From Octopus vulgaris (taxonomy: Eukaryota): DNA of 64,000 nucleotides. The position numbers were made by a program, and so were the translations under genes. Positions 8,777 to 64,000 of this stretch are shown here, in pieces; position 1 is the stretch's first letter, and each line of letters opens with the position of its first letter. The DNA is taken from contig OX597832.1 in NCBI GenBank assembly GCA_951406725.2, positions 68,820,001-68,884,000 on the forward strand, in the 5' to 3' direction. The notes beneath the pieces are model-generated. The model saw only the letters and a list, made by a program, of their open reading frames with translations, searched no databases and was not told the DNA's origin.

Positions 8777-9831
8777 CAATTTACAATGATGAGTTGGCAA
8801 ATAAAAAAATGAAGGGAAACTGATACGGAAATGAATTATTCTAAAAGTTTAAAACCACATCAAATGGTAAACTGCAGAAGAGAGTGAATTAGGGATATGC
8901 TTTTTGGTGATGTTTATATTGTTATTTGCAGTTGTTTCTCTGTAGTTCCAAGGTAATGATGTCTAACATTTATATACCGACAAATATATACATAGATATC
9001 TTTTGAATCAATTAAGAATGATTAAGTTTAGGCATGCAAACGACTATCTTCACCTGTGGACATGTCTGAGAGACTTCATTATGAACGATTTCAAATGTAG
9101 TGTCCCCATATATATATATGTATATATATGATATTGATATCTATATGCATACATATGTATGTATATGCATGTGTATATATATATATATGTAATTATATAT
9201 ATATACATATATATAAACCAGCGACCGCAAATCGCTAAGCCCACTCGCTTTCGACTCCACTACGAATGCACAGCTCATGAACGGCTAAAAGTTAAGATTT
9301 CTTCTTTCAACCTCGCTCCTACTACCCTCTGCACGTATAATCACTATTCCTTCAGTTCCTTCAATTTCTCTCTCATATTTTCCTTCAAATTGACTTCTCT
9401 GATACTTTCAAACCTACTTTCTTGCTATCACGATTTTTCAGTACCCTCTATTCATATTTTCTTTCAGTTTTCAACATACCATTCATGTAATGTTTTTCGT
9501 TTAGCCTCATCTCGTCTCCCTATTTGCTCCCGTTTCATAGCCACTCATCGTCTCCCCTAAAAATTGACTTCTCTGATACTTTCAAACCTACTTTCTTGCT
9601 ATCACGATTAACAGAATCCTCTTGCTAGTTTGGGGTTGTGCCGCCCACCCACCCCTGCACACATGCCGGAAGTTCCTATTCTTTTCATCCCTGGGTTGCT
9701 TCCCTTGAAGACTGCAAATGCTCTTTCACCATCCCTACCCCCTAGTTTCGACCTAGGTAAGGTAATGATCATACAGTGCAAAATATGAATGGGTAGTGTT
9801 ATGCAGGTTGAATTGAAGGCTACTGTATTAC

Positions 9832-12800
9832 TTGCTCATGAATTCTGCCAAATGCGAGCTTTCTTTTCAGGTACATGAAGCTACTGTCCACCGACGCAGG
9901 GTCCCTAGGGCCCATACCTCCCACACCCTCAGGGTTGGCACCCTCAACGTTGGCACACTGAAAGGTAGGTCTGGCGAGATAGTTGAGATGCTTGAACGGA
10001 GACGTGTGGATATATGTTGTATGCAAGAAGTAAGGTGGAGAGGAGGTTCTGCTAGGTTCCTCACAGGCAAGGAACCAAGGTACAAGATTTTCTGGGCAGG
10101 GAACACTGACGGGGTTGGAGGCGTGGGTATACTTATCACTGAGAAATGGGTAGATAAAGTAATTGAGGTAATCAGAGTATGCGACAGAATACTTAAGATT
10201 AGATTAGCGCTTCATCATAGTTTAGCAACCATTATATCAGCCTATGCTCCTCAGTCGGGGCTACCTGATGGACAGAAAGACCGATTCTATGACACTCTAC
10301 TGCAGACTACCTCGTTGACGAACGACAGAGACCTTCTCTTTGTGGCTGGTGACTTCAATGGTCACGTTGGACGACATGCTGGGGGCTTCCACAGCGTACA
10401 TGGAGGCTATGGCTCTGGTTCCCGCAACGAGAAGGGAACCAGGCTGCTGGAGTTCTGCGATGCAAATAATCTTATGATTTGCAACACTAACTTCAGGAAA
10501 CCTACCAGCCACCTAGTCACCTACCGATCGGGCCAACATACCAGCCAAATTGACTACATCCTTGCCAGGCAAAGGGAGAGATGGCTACTTATAAATGCCA
10601 AAACCTTCCCAGGCGAAGAATGCACCCCACAACATAGACTGGTAGTTAGTGACTTTAGGATCAGGAGTAGGAGGACATCCAGAAGACGACCAACATGGAG
10701 AAGAAGGATCTGGAAGCTTAAGGATCCTGTGAATGGACAGAGATTTAGAGACATGTTACTTGAAGCCTTTGACGAAGTAGAAGGGGATAGTGTATCACAT
10801 GGGGTAGAGGACAACTGGACGTTTCTAAGGGACAACCTGCTGAGAGCCACTGACCAGATCTGTGGCTGGTGCAAAGTCCCCTCTCGTCCCAAGGTAACGT
10901 GGTGGTGGAACAGTGTCGTAGACAGGGCTATTAGAGAAAAGAGACAGACTTGGAAGCACTGGAAGAATGGTGGTAGCAGGGAATTGTATCAGACTGCTAA
11001 AAGGGAAGCTAGGAGACAGGTCTATCTAGCCAGAGGGGAAGCAGATAAGAAAAAATTTGCCAATGTTCTGCGCCGTGAGGACCAAAGACTGGAGGTGTTT
11101 CGCGTTGCAAGACAGTGTGTGAGAGAGAATTGTGATGTGGTGGGAGAGAAGTGTGTTCACATGGAAGATGGTTCACTTGTGCTAAACGAGGATGCAAAGA
11201 GAGAGGCTTGGAGATGCCACTATGAAAGGTTGCTGAATAAAGAAAATGAATGGGATAAAGAGAGTCTGCCAAACGTTGACCCAACAGAGGGACCAGCTAT
11301 CAGGGTTGATAGTTCCTTAGTAGCTAAGGCAATTAGAAGCATGAAGACAGGGAAAGCCCCAGGCCCATCAGGTATCACTGCAGAGATGCTCAAAATATCT
11401 GGTAGTGTCGGCTATAGCCTAGTCACCTGTATAGTTAATCAGGTGATACATGAAGGAGTCATACCCAATGACTGGTGTAGCAGCATAATAGTCAACTGCT
11501 ACAAAGGTAAAGGTGATGCCCTAGATACAAATAATTACAGAGGTATCAAGCTGTTGGATCAGGTGATGAAGGTTACAGAGAGGGTCATAAGCCAACTAAT
11601 TAGAGAGAGAGTTAGTTTAGATGAGATGCAGTTTGGTTTCGTGCCAGGGAAAAGTACCACTGATGCTATATTCCTGGTAAGGCAGCTGCAGGAGAAATAC
11701 CTAGCCAAAGATAAGGCCCTGTACCTGGCTTTTGTTGACATGGAGAAAGCCTTCGACAGGGTCCCCCGATCCCTCATATGGTGGTCAATGAGGAAACTAG
11801 GAATAGAAGAATGGTTAGTGAGAGCTGTGCAAGCCATGTACAGGGACGCTGCTAGTAAGGTGAGGGTTGGAAATGAGTACAGTGAAGAATTCCAGGTAGA
11901 GGTAGGAGTCCACCAAGGCTCAGTCCTCAGCCCCCTCCTATTTATCATAGTCCTCCAAGCAATAACGGAGGAATTCAAGACAGGATGCCCCTGGGAGCTC
12001 CTCTATGCTGATGACCTTGCTCTAATTGCTGAGTCATTATCAGAACTGGAGAAGAAGTTTCAGGTGTGGAAGCATGGTTTAGAATCGAAGGGCCTTAGAG
12101 TCAACCTAGCTAAAACCAAAGTCCTAATAAGTAGGAAGGTAGACAAATCACAAACGCCTTCAGGTAGATGGCCCTGCTCGATCTGTAGAAAAGGTGTAGC
12201 TAGAAACTCTATAAGATGCACCAAGTGTAAGCTATGGACACATAAGAGGTGCAGCAATGTCATAGGAAGGCTAACTAGGAAGATGGTTTTTGTATGTGGC
12301 AGATGCTCGGGAGCATTAACCTCTGAAAATCTGCAGAAAACAACTTCCGTCACTTTCCAGGGGGAAAAACTAGAAGTAGTTGATAGCTTCCGTTATCTTG
12401 GTGACCAAGTCAGTAGTGGGGGTGGGTGTGCTGAAAGTGTAACGGCTAGAGTAAGAATAGCCTGGGCAAAGTTTAGGGAGCTCTTACCTCTGTTGGTGAC
12501 TAAAGGCCTCTCGCTCAGAGTAAAAGGCAGACTGTATGATGCATGTGTACGAACAGCCATGCTACATGGCAGTGAAACATGGGCCGTGACTGCTGAGGAC
12601 ATGCGTAAGCTCGCGAGAAATGAAGCTAGTATGCTCTGTTGGATGTGTAATGACAGTGTTCATAGTCGACAGAGTGTAAGTACCTTGAGAGAAAAGTTGG
12701 ACCTCAGAGGAATCAGATGTTGTGTGCAAGAGAGACGATTGCGCTGGTATGGTTATGTGGTGAGAATGGATGAAGATAGGTGTGTGAAAAAGTGCCACAC

Positions 12801-12960
12801 CCTGGCAGTTGAGGGGACCTGTGGAAGAGGTAGACCCAGGAAAACCTGGGTCAAGGTGGTGAAGCACGACCTTCGAACTCTAGGTCTCACCAAGGAAATG
12901 ACCAGAGACCGAGACCTATGGAAGTATGCTGTGCGTGAGAAGACCCGGCAAGACCAGTGA
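9832..12960 (+). CDS. LINE ORF: AP endonuclease + reverse transcriptase with inserted PHD finger (1042 aa, uninterrupted)
   Basis: APE motifs TLNVGTL, MQEVRW, SAYAPQ, GDFNGHVG, SQIDYIL, QHRLVV. RT motifs KAPGPSG, NYRGIKLL, QFGF, DMEKAFDRV, GVHQGSVLSPLLF, YADD, FRYLG. RTE-type C-terminus RRLRWYG..RGRPRKTW. First ATG at 9838. Confidence 0.97.
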   Translation: MLMNSAKCELSFQVHEATVHRRRVPRAHTSHTLRVGTLNVGTLKGRSGEIVEMLERRRVDICCMQEVRWRGGSARFLTGKEPRYKIFWAGNTDGVGGVGILITEKWVDKVIEVIRVCDRILKIRLALHHSLATIISAYAPQSGLPDGQKDRFYDTLLQTTSLTNDRDLLFVAGDFNGHVGRHAGGFHSVHGGYGSGSRNEKGTRLLEFCDANNLMICNTNFRKPTSHLVTYRSGQHTSQIDYILARQRERWLLINAKTFPGEECTPQHRLVVSDFRIRSRRTSRRRPTWRRRIWKLKDPVNGQRFRDMLLEAFDEVEGDSVSHGVEDNWTFLRDNLLRATDQICGWCKVPSRPKVTWWWNSVVDRAIREKRQTWKHWKNGGSRELYQTAKREARRQVYLARGEADKKKFANVLRREDQRLEVFRVARQCVRENCDVVGEKCVHMEDGSLVLNEDAKREAWRCHYERLLNKENEWDKESLPNVDPTEGPAIRVDSSLVAKAIRSMKTGKAPGPSGITAEMLKISGSVGYSLVTCIVNQVIHEGVIPNDWCSSIIVNCYKGKGDALDTNNYRGIKLLDQVMKVTERVISQLIRERVSLDEMQFGFVPGKSTTDAIFLVRQLQEKYLAKDKALYLAFVDMEKAFDRVPRSLIWWSMRKLGIEEWLVRAVQAMYRDAASKVRVGNEYSEEFQVEVGVHQGSVLSPLLFIIVLQAITEEFKTGCPWELLYADDLALIAESLSELEKKFQVWKHGLESKGLRVNLAKTKVLISRKVDKSQTPSGRWPCSICRKGVARNSIRCTKCKLWTHKRCSNVIGRLTRKMVFVCGRCSGALTSENLQKTTSVTFQGEKLEVVDSFRYLGDQVSSGGGCAESVTARVRIAWAKFRELLPLLVTKGLSLRVKGRLYDACVRTAMLHGSETWAVTAEDMRKLARNEASMLCWMCNDSVHSRQSVSTLREKLDLRGIRCCVQERRLRWYGYVVRMDEDRCVKKCHTLAVEGTCGRGRPRKTWVKVVKHDLRTLGLTKEMTRDRDLWKYAVREKTRQDQ

Positions 12961-13019
12961 GAACAATCAAAATCAAATCATATATCAGAAAGCAGGGGTT
13001 AAGTGACCCATCTGTTCAT

Positions 13020-14230
13020 GTCCGCTGTCAGCCTCGTCTGGCACCCGTGCCGGTGATAGGTAAAAGCACCATTCGCTCATGGCCGTTTGCCAGCTCTGCC
13101 TGGCACCGTGTCGGTGGCACGTAAAAGCACCATCCGTTCGTGTTCGTTGCCAGCCTCGCCTGGCCCCGTGCCGGTGACACGTAAAAGCACCGTCCATTCG
13201 TGGCCGTTGGCCAGCTCTGTCTGGCCCCGTGTCGGTGGCACGTAAAAGCACCATCCGTTCGTGGCCGTTTGCCAGCTCTGTCTGGCCCCGTGTCGGTGGC
13301 ACGTAAAAGCACCATCCGTCCGTGTCCGTTGCCAGCCTCGGCTGGCCCCCGTGCCGGTGACACGTAAAAGCACCGTCCGCTCGTGGCCGTTTGCCAGCTC
13401 TGTCTGGCAACCGTGTCGGTGGCACGTAAAAGCACCATCCGTTCGCGTCCGTTGCCAGCCTCGCCTGGCCCCGTGCCGGTGATAGGTAAAAGCACCATTC
13501 GCTCATGGCCGTTTGCCAGCTCTGCCTGGCACCGTGTCGGTGGCACGTAAAAGCACCATCCGTTCGTGTTCGTTGCCAGCCTCGCCTGGCCCCCGTGCAG
13601 GTGACACGTAAAAGCACCGTCCATTCGTGGCCGTTCGCCAGCTCTGTCTGGCCCCGTGTCGGTGGCACGTAAAAGCACCATCCGTTCGTGGCCGTTTGCC
13701 AGCTCTGTCTGGCCCCGTGTCGGTGGCACGTAAAAGCACCATCCGTCCGTGTCCGTTGCCAGCCTCGGCTGGCCCCCGTGCCGGTGACACGTAAAAGCAC
13801 CGTCCGCTCGTGGCCGTTTGCCAGCTCTGTCTGGCAACCGTGTCGGTGGCACGTAAAAGCACCATCCGTTCGCGTCCGTTGCCAGCCTCGGCTGGCCCCC
13901 GTGCCGGTGACACATAAAAGCACCATCCGTTCGTGGCCGTTTGCCAGCTCTGTCTGGCCCCGTGTCGGTGGCACGTAAAAGCACCATCCGTCCGTGTCCG
14001 TTGCCAGCCTCGGCTGGCCCCCGTGCCGGTGACACATATAAGCACCGTCCGCTCGTGGCCGTTTGCCAGCTCTGCCTGGCAACCGTTTCGGTGGCACGTA
14101 AAAGCACCATCTGTTCGAGTCCGTTGCCAGCATCGCCTGGCCCCGTGCCGGTGACACGTAAGAGCACCATCCGTTCGTGGCCGTTCGCCAGCTCTGTCTG
14201 GCACCTGTGCAGGTGGCACGTAAAAACACC
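13020..14230 (+). repeat. Tandem array of 20 x ~61-bp monomers in the LINE 3' UTR
   Basis: The core GTGYCGGTGRCACGTAAAAGCACC recurs at 60-62-bp spacing (TAAAAG anchor from 13061 to 14221). Confidence 0.97.
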
Positions 14231-14451
14231 CACTACACTCGCGGAGTGGTTGGCGTTAGGAAGGGCATCCAGCCATAGAAACACTGCCAGATCTGACTGG
14301 GCCTGACGAAGCCTTCCAGCTTCACAGACCCCAGTTGACCCGTCCAACCCATGCTAGCATGGAAAGCGGACGCTAAACGATGATGATAAACGATGATGAT
14401 GTACGTATATATATATATATGTATGTGTATATATATATATATATGTATGTA

Positions 14452-15221
14452 TGTGAATAAAGGAAATTATATGACCTTGGTGAGTGTGTATGCTCCAACT
14501 ATGTGCTATACTGATGACAAAAAACTTTCTTTCTACCATGCTTTGAAGGGTATTATAAGAAATATCCCTCGGGCAGACAAAGTCATTGTACTGGGTGACT
14601 TTAATGCTAGAATGGACATATGGACTGTAATTGGAAAGCATGGGATGGGAAAGTGTAATAGTAATGGCATGCTTTTGCTGCAGATGTGTGAGGAGCTGTG
14701 TCTGTGTGTTACCAATACCATGTTTCAACAAAAGAATAAGCTTAAGACTACATGGATGCACCCTGCATCTAAAGAATGGCATATTCTGGATTACATCCTA
14801 GTTAGGGTGCATGACAGACAGGATGTACAGTGTGTTCATGTTCTTCGTGGAGCTGAGTGTTGGACTGACCACCGCCTATTACGCGCAAAAGTGAAATTAG
14901 TCACAATACATAAAATCCGAGCTGCAGGGATTACCCTGCCTAAAAGACTGAATGTTGATTGTCTTAGGTGTAATAGTGTGAAGAGAACTTTACAAGAGGA
15001 AGTGAATGCTGCAGATTTTGGGGAGGATTGGCCGATCCTTAAAAAGTCAGTTTATGATATAGGCAAGAAAGTTCTGGGATTGATACAAAGAAAGCATCAA
15101 GATTGGTTTAAAGAAAATGATGAACATATAGATGATTTATTGGCTGATAAAATACGTACTTTGTCATGCTATTTGTCAGCAAAGTCACAGGAAAGGGAAG
15201 TGTTGCATAGGGAACTCAAGG
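14452..15221 (+). mobile_element. Fragment of a second LINE family (AP-endonuclease region, RTE-like)
   Basis: SVYAPT, VLGDFNAR, NSNGMLLL, TWMHPASKEWHILDYILV, TDHRLL. Bounded by (TA)n tracts on both sides. Confidence 0.88.
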
Positions 15222-21435: not shown

Positions 21436-21497
<62 letters not shown>

Positions 21498-21499
<2 letters not shown>

Positions 21500-24185
21500 T
21501 CATCATCATCATCATCATTTAACATCTGCTTTCCGTGCTAGTATGGGTTGCACAATGTTGACTGAAGGCTGGCAAACCAGATGGCTGCACCAGGCTCGAG
21601 TCTTGATCTGGCAGAGTTTCTACAGCTGGATGCTCTTCCTAACGCCAACCACTCCGAGAGTGTAATGGGTGCTTTTTACGTGTCACCGCCATGGGGGCCA
21701 GTCAGCTGGTACAGGAAGAGACCTCACTCGAATCTTTTTACACGTGCCACCAGAACAGGTGCCAGTAAGGCAATGCTGGTAACGATCACGCTTGAATGGT
21801 GCCCTTTTATGTGCCACAGGTAAGGAAGCCAGTTGGCTGCTCTGGCACTGATCATGCTCCGATGGTGTTCTTGGCACCCTACTAGCACAGGTATAAGTGC
21901 CAGTAAGGCGACACTGGTAACGATCATACTCGAATAGCCGCTTTGTCAATGATCACACTCGTGTGGTGCTCTTTGCACCCCGCTAGTACGGATGCCAGTC
22001 ATGGAAATGATTTTGATTTTGATTTCACTTGCTTCAACAGGTCTTCGCAAGCAAAGTTTAGTGACCAAAGAAGGAAAAGGTACGCATAAGCGGGCTGGTT
22101 ATGCTCCTGGCATAGGTCACAGGTTAAGGTCTCATCTGGCTTGCCGGGTCTTCTCGAGCATAGCATATTTCCAAAAGTCTCGGTCGCTAGTCATTTCTTT
22201 GGAGAGGCCTTATGTTCAAAGGTCATGCTTCACCACTTCATCCCAGGTCTTCCTGGGTCTACCTCTTCCACAGGTTCCCTCACTCCGCTAGGGTGTGGCA
22301 CTTTCTCACACAGTTATCCTCATCCATTCTCACCACATGACCATACCAGCACAGTCGTCTCTCTTGCACACTACATCTAATGCTTCTTAGGTCCAACTAT
22401 TCTCTCAAGGTACTTACACACTGTTGAGTATGCACACTGACATTACACATCCATCGAATGATACTGGCTTCATTCCTTGCAAGCTTATGCATATCCTCAG
22501 CAGTCACAGCCCATGTTTCACTGCCGTACAGCATGGCTGTTCATACACATGCATCATACAGTCTACCTTTTACTCTGAGCGAGAGGCCCTTTGTCTCAAG
22601 CAGAGGTAAGAGCTCTCTGAACTTTGCCCAAGCTTTTCTTATACTAGCAGCTACAGTTTCAGTGCACCCTCCTCTGCTACTGACATGGTCACCTAGGTAA
22701 CGGAAGCTATCAACTACTTCTAGTTTTTCTCCCTGGCATGTGGCGGAAGTTGCTCTCTGCGCATTTTCAGTGTTTATCGCTCCCGAGCATCTGCCACATA
22801 CAGAACCTATCTTCCCAGTTAGCCTTCCTTTGATATTACTGCACCTCTTATGTGTCCATAGCTTACACTGGGTACATCTTATAGAGTTTCTACCTACCAC
22901 TCTACAACAGATCGTGAAGGGCCATCTACCTGAAGGGATTTGTGGTTTGCCTGCCTTCCTACTTATTAGGAATTTGGTTTTAGCTAGGTTGACTCTAAGG
23001 CCCTTCGATTCTAATCCTTGTTTCCACACTTGAAGCTTCTTCTCTAGTTCTGATAGTGACTCAGCAATTAGAGCAAGGGCGTCAGCACAGAGGGAGCTCC
23101 CAGGGGCATCCTGTCTTGAATTCCTCCATTAATGCCTGGAGGACTATGATAAATAGGAGGGGGCTGAGGACTGAACCTTGGTGGACCTCTACCTCTACCC
23201 GGAATTCTTCACTGTACTCGTTGCCAACCCTCACCTTACTGACAGTGTCCCTGTACATGGCTTGCACAGCTCTCACTAACCATTCATCTATCCCTAGTTT
23301 CCTCATTGACCACCAGATAAGGAATCGGAGGACCCTGTCAAAGGCTTTCTCCATGTCAACGAAAGCCAGGTACAGGGTCATATCTTTGGCTAGGTATTTC
23401 TCCTGCAGCTGTCTCATCAGAAATATGGCATCAGTGGGGCTTTTCCATGGCACGAAACCAAACTGCATCTCATCCAATTTGACTCTCCCCCTAATCAGTT
23501 GGGCCTGGGGCTTTCCCAGTCTTCATGCTTCTAATTGCCTTAACTACCAAGGAACTGTCAACTCAGATAGCTGGTCCCTCTGTTGGGTCAACATTCGGTA
23601 GACTCTCTTTATCCCATTCATTTTCTTTATTCAGCAACCTTTCATAGTGGCGTCTCAAAACCTCTCTCTTTGCATCCTCATTTAGCACAAGTGAACTGTC
23701 ATCCATGCGAACACATTTCTCTCCTACCACATCACTCTTACACACTGTCTTCCAACACGAAATACCTCAAGTCTTTCATCCTCATGGCGCAGAACATTGG
23801 CAATTTTTTTCTTATCTGCTTCCTCTCTGACTAAATAAACCTGCCGCCTAGCTTCCCTTCTGGCAGTCTGATACGCTTCCCTGCTACCACCGTTTTTCCA
23901 GTCCTTCCAAGCCTGTTTCTTTTGTCTAATAGCCCTGTCAACAATATTGTTCCACCACCACGTTATTTTGGGTCAAGAGGGGACTTTGCACCATCCACAG
24001 ATCTGGTCGGTGGCCCTTAGCAGGTTGTCCTGTAGGAACCTCCAGTTGTCTTCTACCCCATGTGAAGCTATTTCCCCTTCTATTTCGTCAAAGACTTTGA
24101 GTAATATGTCTCTGAAACTGTCCACTTGCGGGATCTTTAAGTCTCCAGACCATTCTTCTCTTTGCTGGTCATCTTCTGGGCATCC
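21498..24185 (-). mobile_element. Truncated, frameshifted copy of the RTE-PHD LINE family
   Basis: ORF pieces closely match the 9832-12960 protein (e.g. DMEKAFDRV, QGSVLSPLLF). It has a (CAT)n tail at 21498, a degenerate 3' array at ~21670-21990 and a ~230-bp internal deletion near 23500. Confidence 0.93.
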
Positions 24186-62856: not shown

Positions 62857-64000
62857 CATCATCATCATCATCATCATCATTTAACGTCCGTTTTCCGCGC
62901 TAGCACGGGTTGGACGCTTCGACCGGGGTCTGGGGAGCCAGGCTCCAGTCTGATCTGGCAGTATTTCTACAGCTGGATGCCCTTCCTAACACCAACCACT
63001 CTGCGAGTGTAGTGGGTGCTTTTTACATGCCACCTGCACAGGTGCCAGAGGGGTCTGGCATCGGCCACGATTGGTTGGTGCTTTTTATGTTCCACCGGCA
63101 CAGAAGCCAGTCGAGGCGGTGCTGGCATCGGCCATGTTCGGATGGTGCTTTTTATGTGCCACCGGCACAGAAGCCAGTCGGGGCGGTGCTGGCATCGGCC
63201 ATGTTTGGATGGTGCTTTTTATGTGCCACCGGCACAGAAGCCATTCGAGGCGGGTTTGGCATCGGTCACGTTCGGATTGTGCTTTTTATGTGCCACCAGC
63301 ACAGAAGCCAGTTGAAGCGGCACTGGCAACGGCCACAGGTGCCAGAGGGGTCTGGCATCGGCCACGATCGGTTGGTGCTTTTTATGTGCCACCGGCACAG
63401 AAGCCAGTCGAGGCGGTGCTGGCATTGGCCACGTTCGGATGGTGCTTTTTATGTGCCACCGGCACAGAAGCCATTCGAGGCGGGGTTGGCATCGGTCACG
63501 TTCGGATGGTGCTTTTTATGTGCCACTGGCACAGAAGCCAGTCGAGGCTGCACTGGCAACGGCCACGTTTGGATGGTGCTTTTTATGTGCCACTGGCACA
63601 GGTATCACAACTACTGTTTCCATTGATATTTGGTTCGATGTTCATGTACATGCACTTGACTCAACAGGTCTCCTCAAGCACAGCGAGATGTTCTGGGATC
63701 CAAGGTACTTTGAATGGGCAGGGGGTATGCGGAACTGGTGCCGGAAGTATCCCAGGTCTTAGTAGTCACAGCACATCTCCAGAGATCTCGGTCCTTCGCC
63801 ATTGCCTCAGTGAGGCCCAACACTCTGAGGTCATGCTTGACTAGCTCATCCCATGTCTTCCTGGGTCTACCTCTCCTCCTGATTCCTTCAACTGTTTGGG
63901 AGTGGCACTTCTTCACACATCTCTCCTCATCCATCCGCAGTACATGACCATACCATCGCAAGCGTCGCTCTTGCACACCGCATCTGATGCTTCTTATGCC
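62857..64000 (-). mobile_element. 3' part of another RTE-family copy (runs off the window end), with a 9-copy ~67-bp array
   Basis: QERRLRWYGHVLRMDEERCVKKCH...RGRPRKTW. The core motif recurs at 63017, 63079, 63146, 63213, 63280, 63376, 63443, 63510 and 63577. (CAT)n tail next to (TA)n. Confidence 0.93.

Follow-up and report, generated by a model that had tools for sequence, protein, structure and literature searches.

A variable-number tandem repeat in the 3′ untranslated region of a young RTE-type LINE of Octopus vulgaris

The DNA analysed here is a 64,000-nucleotide stretch of the Octopus vulgaris genome (assembly GCA_951406725.2, contig OX597832.1, positions 68,820,001 to 68,884,000, forward strand), hereafter called the window, to which all coordinates below refer. 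The setting is a 2.8-Gb, microsatellite-rich animal genome. On the forward strand of the window lies a LINE copy whose 5′ UTR (9208–9816), delimited by alignment of 20 copies, starts at a TATA-like word within a (TA)n tract. A single open reading frame follows (ORF; 9817–12960, forward strand), which spans 1047 amino acids from stop to stop and comprises an APE endonuclease, a reverse transcriptase (RT) and a PHD-like finger; Pfam matches were RVT_1 (E = 1.8e-31), Exo_endo_phos (4.5e-9) and PHD (0.0034, below its cut-off). The protein has 869 homologues, with a best identity of 54%. These homologues are unnamed, and we assign the element putatively to the RTE clade of LINEs from its architecture: it has a single APE-RT ORF, a 3′ microsatellite tail behind a terminal stem-loop, and dispersed, variably 5′-truncated copies. 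This layout is that of an RTE-type LINE, and the family is young. A check for target-site duplications found (TA)n on both sides of the copy. Its (GAT)n tail (14378–14400, forward strand), also present in sister copies, carries a slipped duplication and is followed by (TA)n target DNA.

Some sister copies (L102, L109, L110 and L113) reach further upstream, with 5′ repeats of ~830–850 bp that run from the TATA-like word. Where the ORF begins, there is a short ATG reading frame that is out of frame with it, and just upstream of this the aligned copies keep a GT-AG intron-like stretch (~9757–9873, GTAAG followed by a pyrimidine tract and CAG). At the other end, a piece of another endonuclease-type LINE (14390–14800) adjoins the tail.

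Downstream of the ORF, a family-specific spacer of 49 bp (12961–13009, forward strand), with identical layout in sister copies, leads to a tandem array of 20 units of 60–62 bp each (13010–14230, forward strand), called by TRF with a period of 61, 19.6 copies and a score of 1528. The first-pass annotation of this DNA had recognised an RT-linked array of 20 units of ~61 bp, which we confirmed; it had placed the start ~60 bp past the stop codon at 12960, and the close spacing holds at a measured 49 bp. Contigs from sequencing runs of two organisms span the ORF-array junction. The 19 internal monomers (13010–14168, 60–62 bp) are of two types that mostly alternate (BABAABABABAABABABAB), and a terminal-type monomer (14169–14230) is the last unit in 30 of 30 copies. 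The motif GCCAG-N6-CTGGC (hairpin 1) occurs throughout, unit 1 reading GTCAG, and the core TAAAAGCACC is found in 17 of the 20 units, with a variant form in units 17, 19 and 20. In the candidate second hairpin, CGTGYC-GGT-GRCACG, type A monomers carry T with G at the Y-R pair and type B monomers C with A. CRISPR arrays share with this array a regular period of ~60 bp and palindromic parts. The octopus array differs in repeating whole units without unique spacers, in its eukaryotic genome and in its adjacent gene, a LINE ORF, and so the earlier judgement that it is not CRISPR stands.

The last core continues into a 3′ block common to other elements in the window. This block had been described as a terminus shared with short elements; the sharing is real, and the short elements are mostly 5′-truncated copies of the LINE, three of those in the window still holding the ORF end. 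An interpretation of the short elements as a SINE was rejected, since they have no fixed 5′ head and are scattered truncations of the LINE 3′ UTR; 5′ ends were scattered in 90 family copies. The block consists of a conserved module (14231–14290, forward strand) with a small hairpin and the AGGAAGGGCATCC block, a family-variable stem-loop (14295–14337, forward strand; predicted fold, with variants between families) and a predicted 3′-terminal stem-loop (14342–14372, forward strand). The last 111 nt fold at z = −2.66, and in family 2 (described below) one A-U pair of the terminal stem is replaced by G-C, a compensatory variant. RT recognition probably resides in the terminal stem-loop.

Elsewhere, the conserved module is a 5′-UTR block of RTE-like elements. 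A degenerate pattern of the block was found at 120 metagenome loci and at 0 places in viral contigs. By pattern, the block stands behind a twister-like sequence in 93 of the 120, and a twister-P1 model matched 4 of the 7 metagenome loci scanned, with E values between 3e-8 and 1e-3 and scores short of the gathering score. Four metagenome loci have a homologous ORF start 229–313 nt downstream of the block, and 16 are short block-class elements with a hairpin upstream, most of them with a nearby 3′ stem-loop and repeat tail. On this evidence, the block elsewhere is a piece of a 5′ UTR or of a bipartite element. Its position 3′ of the ORF here, versus 5′ in the RTEs of other animals, is a new observation. 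The sole exact match in the octopus genome to the twister-P1-like pattern (L261, 1490–1545) lies directly after a (TA)n tract. Of a candidate MetaSINE/Ceph-domain origin, the Ceph-domain part was compared and rejected: the Ceph-domain block is not the tail block, and a search with three motifs gave 0 matches in the PMC5786205 supplement.

The array is copied with the element, and its length changes in steps of whole monomers; one such change is a duplication found at this locus only. Among sister copies (99% identical), it was present in all 30 of the best copies, chosen from 40 candidates scored, with 4–20 units in each. A 36-nt tail word specific to the family occurs 1,285 times in exact form in the genome; in the first 90 of these on contig 1, taken unselected, the 15 complete arrays hold 6–15 units. 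One tail SNP splits the 30 copies into sets with array lengths of 5–20 and 4–20. A tree of the 30 copies was spoiled by the flanking DNA of truncated copies, and the 205 shared nucleotides gave 0 informative sites. At the present locus, a 7-monomer block of 426 bp occurs in two copies (13041–13894, forward strand, bounds approximate), duplicated locally after private mutations. A variant of units 1 and 8 occurs twice genome-wide, both times at this locus and 426 bp apart; two further variants are likewise doubled here, one of which also occurs once in L312, and the duplicated blocks differ at 6 of 428 columns. Because private variants are doubled 426 bp apart in nearly identical blocks, the 20 units represent 13 plus a local duplication, and the number 20 is not a property of the element. 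With head-to-tail units whose number varies between copies, the array is an element-borne VNTR of an ordinary kind in a LINE tail; the undescribed system that had been suspected is not supported.

The array is a trait of the whole superfamily, of which a 33-nt tail word has 39,124 exact copies in the genome. A second RTE-like family in the window (family 2; 62858–64000, reverse strand) shows an ORF end, 9 cores in monomers of mostly 67 bp and the same tail module; across 20 loci its 67-bp units number from 2 to at least 15, and three loci with a common tail variant have just 2. An older related LINE copy (21496–24179, reverse strand) has the same tail module behind monomers that have decayed. 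In other families, about 2–7 cores were counted in twelve ORF-linked copies, two of which are doubtful rows, and in group-2 families the 25–26-nt core alone is repeated. In three family-2 loci (L045, L046 and L049), pieces of the UTR preceding the array have been copied into it, giving composite units of 126–209 bp. In one group-2 family (L354, L355, L363 and L368), the whole core-hairpin-block module (~100 nt) is duplicated; the region upstream is pyrimidine-rich, unlike an RTE ORF end, and these are possibly another LINE or SINE with the same tail. A dense cluster of tail copies at 4.15–4.45 Mb of contig 1, with about one exact match per 4–5 kb, is a possible repeat hotspot or piRNA cluster.

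One subfamily has lost 15 nt between the two TGGCAC repeats of its terminal unit, so that hairpin 2 and both 5′ pseudoknot arms are gone. It numbers 313 exact copies versus 1,070 intact copies of the same loop type, and its terminal unit retains the linear motif, with two intact cores upstream. Most of 20 inspected copies have the sequence upstream in common, whereas family 1, that of the present element, shows the deletion in just 1 of 612 monomers; it was therefore probably present in an active source element. A strict pattern for the deletion matched 12 of 160, of which 11 were genuine by eye.

O. vulgaris also carries RTE-2_OV which, according to the accessible text of PMC9115989, is likewise a young RTE LINE; its primer LineR7 matches exactly at 122 places in the genome. 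RTE-2_OV differs in its protein (28–29% identity), its short 3′ UTR and its (ATT)n end, and it has the core in 0 of 6 loci. Two RTE-2_OV primers had no match in the window, and the 3′ ‘microsatellite’ reported for it in that text is not the present array. Copies of the RTE-2_OV type, which terminate in (ATT)n and carry no core, show that the array is not required for RTE mobility in this genome. The view that numerous units are required finds no support, given the spread of the 2-unit and arm-deleted subfamilies and the lack of an array in RTE-2_OV.

When families 1 and 2 are compared, internal monomers agree at 47/54 and 46/55 positions outside the loop (84–87%), in comparison to 118/194 (61%) four-fold sites of the ORF (p = 2e-5 and 2e-4, respectively), and the tail module agrees at 58 of its first 60 nt. 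Since the monomers exceed the silent ORF sites in conservation, a redundant signal within them is likely, and a linear one is the best fit to the evidence as a whole. The proposal of a multimerised cis-acting RNA element may thus be right as to a conserved motif; for its structural part no covariation was found in the monomers. Our preferred reading, which we consider reasonably probable, is that the array is a variable-number 3′ UTR minisatellite of redundant short signals, with a unit number that is probably not tightly selected. Several points speak against it. The conservation of the monomers far above silent ORF sites, and invariant stems combined with variable loops, are unlike a purely neutral repeat; the arm-deleted subfamily retains two intact cores, and one intact structure may still be required; and the longest arrays are those of the youngest family examined, a pattern to which a copy-number benefit would likewise lead. 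The cross-unit pairing and the weak bias in truncation phase described below also count against it.

The same comparisons bear on a fully neutral minisatellite, conserved through recent 3′-end exchange and through turnover from a constrained terminal unit, which we regard as unlikely. L034, with a family-2 body and a group-2 tail, is the kind of exchange that this reading predicts, and such exchange between families could imitate part of the monomer conservation. Upstream monomers have decayed in some families, and tandem expansion occurs elsewhere too, in a ~34-bp unit of the 5′ UTR of one copy (L106) and in the homogeneous local array of L408. The first-pass annotation had linked a neutral minisatellite to the lack of covariation and to an unconstrained copy number, and at the sequence level this is largely what we observed. 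However, internal and terminal units differ in loop and linker and not in stems and core, and the tail hairpins have diverged between families whereas the cores have not, both of which argue against neutrality.

In 210 monomers, the stems are 94–100% invariant, whereas the loops differ in sequence and are 6 or 10–11 nt long; the unpaired spacer is also fairly conserved. The covariation analysis that had been suggested for the array found no compensatory change in the stems of 218 monomers, and no pair did better than independence. Hairpin 1 stands as a motif, with a mean pair probability of ~0.52 in the folded array, and lacks compensatory support. Hairpin 2 did not withstand examination: its arms are anti-correlated, the Y-R position being Watson-Crick in 3 of 335 internal monomers from the 30 family copies (G-U in 162, mismatched in 170), and its mean pair probability is 0.017. 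The proposed two-hairpin switch is accordingly not supported; the alternative GGUG/CACC pairing has a probability of 0.05 in this pseudoknot-free model. Relative to shuffled sequences, lone monomers gain little or nothing in folding (z = +0.56 and −1.64), and z is −1.9 for AB dimers and −2.4 for BA dimers. In 298 of 330 neighbouring pairs, one unit's left arm is Watson-Crick with the right arm of the unit that follows. The A/B alternation traces to a single divergence event and is absent from family 2, and this cross-unit pairing is therefore better regarded as unexplained than as covariation.

These data also bear on the possibility that the array is a multivalent platform of H-type pseudoknots (NGUG/CACN, GGUG/CACC, with an A-rich loop) or double-GCAC sites whose number matters. 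We consider this quite unlikely, and equally so its more detailed form, in which many copies would recruit either the ORF protein or a protein of the RBPMS/couch-potato type that stabilises or localises the RNA. The core is retained in every family examined, as a platform would have it, and the evidence for the pseudoknot, drawn from base identities, is mixed. At the junction, group 1 has a G, which could extend stem 1, and group 2 a C, which faces G in 29 of 30 loci; the outer stem-1 pair of group 2 is A-T in one family (5 of 30) but open in 20 of 30. The terminal pseudoknot arms have been lost in a subfamily that spreads, and a copy number ranging from 2 to 20 also speaks against the platform. 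GCAC occurs 34 times in the 1,221-nt array versus 6 times in the 3,144-nt ORF, although this enrichment follows trivially from repetition. Ten GCAC pairs lie 6–7 nt apart; in the portion of PMC5311487 available to us, paired GCAC sites separated by more than 6 nt are reported to be preferred, but with a best spacing of 10–12 nt for couch potato and RBPMS. A double-GCAC site for RBPMS-family proteins may serve as a lead only.

More speculatively, a 5′-UTR module might have moved to the 3′ end and its leading edge multimerised, so that pseudoknots or double-GCAC sites would form a tunable array that loads the element's own protein or a host protein of the RBPMS/couch-potato type, a scenario that we hold to be improbable. 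RTEs are not known to have an ORF1p. If the scenario were true, copy number would set RNA stability, localisation or cis preference, and would have aided the superfamily in reaching its tens of thousands of copies.

Self-cleavage or nuclease processing of the array into phased ~61-nt RNAs, possibly as a twister relic, is very improbable, since, although the core lies upstream of the block at the position of the twister-P1-like ribozyme in metagenome loci, an Rfam scan of 9000–14600 with E values up to 10 gave no match to a ribozyme family, the monomer's similarity to the twister was not significant (p = 0.15 and 0.11), 42 truncation points within the array were unphased (phases 7–58, KS p = 0.41), and 21 of 72 clean copies span the array entirely. 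The processing or small-RNA signal that had been envisaged is therefore not borne out. The sole Rfam match on the array was NLPC-P60 (E = 5.7). The 42 points derive from 62 copies called array-truncated, from which 20 were dropped (3 duplicates and 17 mis-walked or ambiguous); the best 3-nt phase window held 6 (p = 0.54), and a Rayleigh p of ~0.046 indicates a weak broad bias. Truncations per unit fall smoothly in the 72 copies (11, 8, 6, 3, 3, 2, 3, 3, 1), and do not point clearly to a site at which the RT is blocked. A likeness to pistol and HDV-like ribozymes was rejected for an unfit strand order and the lack of a model match. In L349 and L350, pieces of the array are 5′-inverted at the truncation point, as twin priming predicts.

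Under the preferred reading of a minisatellite of redundant signals, an ancestral RTE probably captured a 5′-type module, from a 5′ UTR or a piece of a bipartite RTE, at its 3′ end. The core at the leading, upstream edge of this module would then have duplicated repeatedly, by itself in group 2 and together with a hairpin spacer in group 1. Units may be gained and lost through slippage or unequal exchange at GCACC/TGGCAC microhomologies in DNA, and the same microhomology-driven changes probably also occur as the RNA is reverse-transcribed. Not the array but the last ~150 nt (the module, the terminal stem-loop and (GAT)n) are most likely what the RT recognises, and it would prime at the terminal stem-loop and (GAT)n; recognition of a 3′ stem-loop is described for stringent LINEs in the accessible part of PMC3747384. 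What is conserved in the monomers is most likely the linear motif TGSCACRUAAAA(A)GCAC, whether or not the GCCAG/CUGGC hairpin belongs to it. This motif may be bound by the element's own protein or by a host protein, the cores being at most redundant binding sites.

Tandem repeats in the 3′ UTR of retroelements are known from Ogre/PisTR-A of pea, the Gmr9 minisatellite and the HeT-A 3′ region, as summarised in the available text of PMC9659126. These are alike in having a variable 3′ UTR repeat that is element-borne and able to expand locally. The octopus element differs from them, as far as that text describes them, in being a non-LTR APE-RT element and in having a unit motif that crosses families and abuts the 3′ recognition region. 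RTE LINEs and bipartite RTEs, in the available portion of Kojima 2018 (PMC5786205), share the single APE-RT ORF, the microsatellite tail and the joining of 5′-UTR pieces to 3′ ends; the difference from the bipartite RTEs described there is that a 5′-UTR-type block here lies in the 3′ UTR of autonomous elements. The 5′ twister of the Schistosoma Perere-3 RTE, in the accessible text of PMC8501958, is similarly an RTE-linked structured RNA, whereas the octopus array is 3′, without the twister core and without sign of cleavage. We found no description of the octopus RTE 3′ array in the literature, including PMC9115989 with its supplements, PMC13282606 and PMC8967140 in the parts accessible to us; Repbase and Dfam consensus sequences, which were outside the search, probably hold the sequence.

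Collectively, a block that follows the 5′ ribozyme of other RTE-like elements is found here at the 3′ end of a repeat that ranks among the most abundant in the genome, which helps to locate the cis-signals of RTEs. The natural variants, with 2–20 units, arm-deleted or core-only, represent a ready series on the relation of UTR repeat number to retrotransposition.
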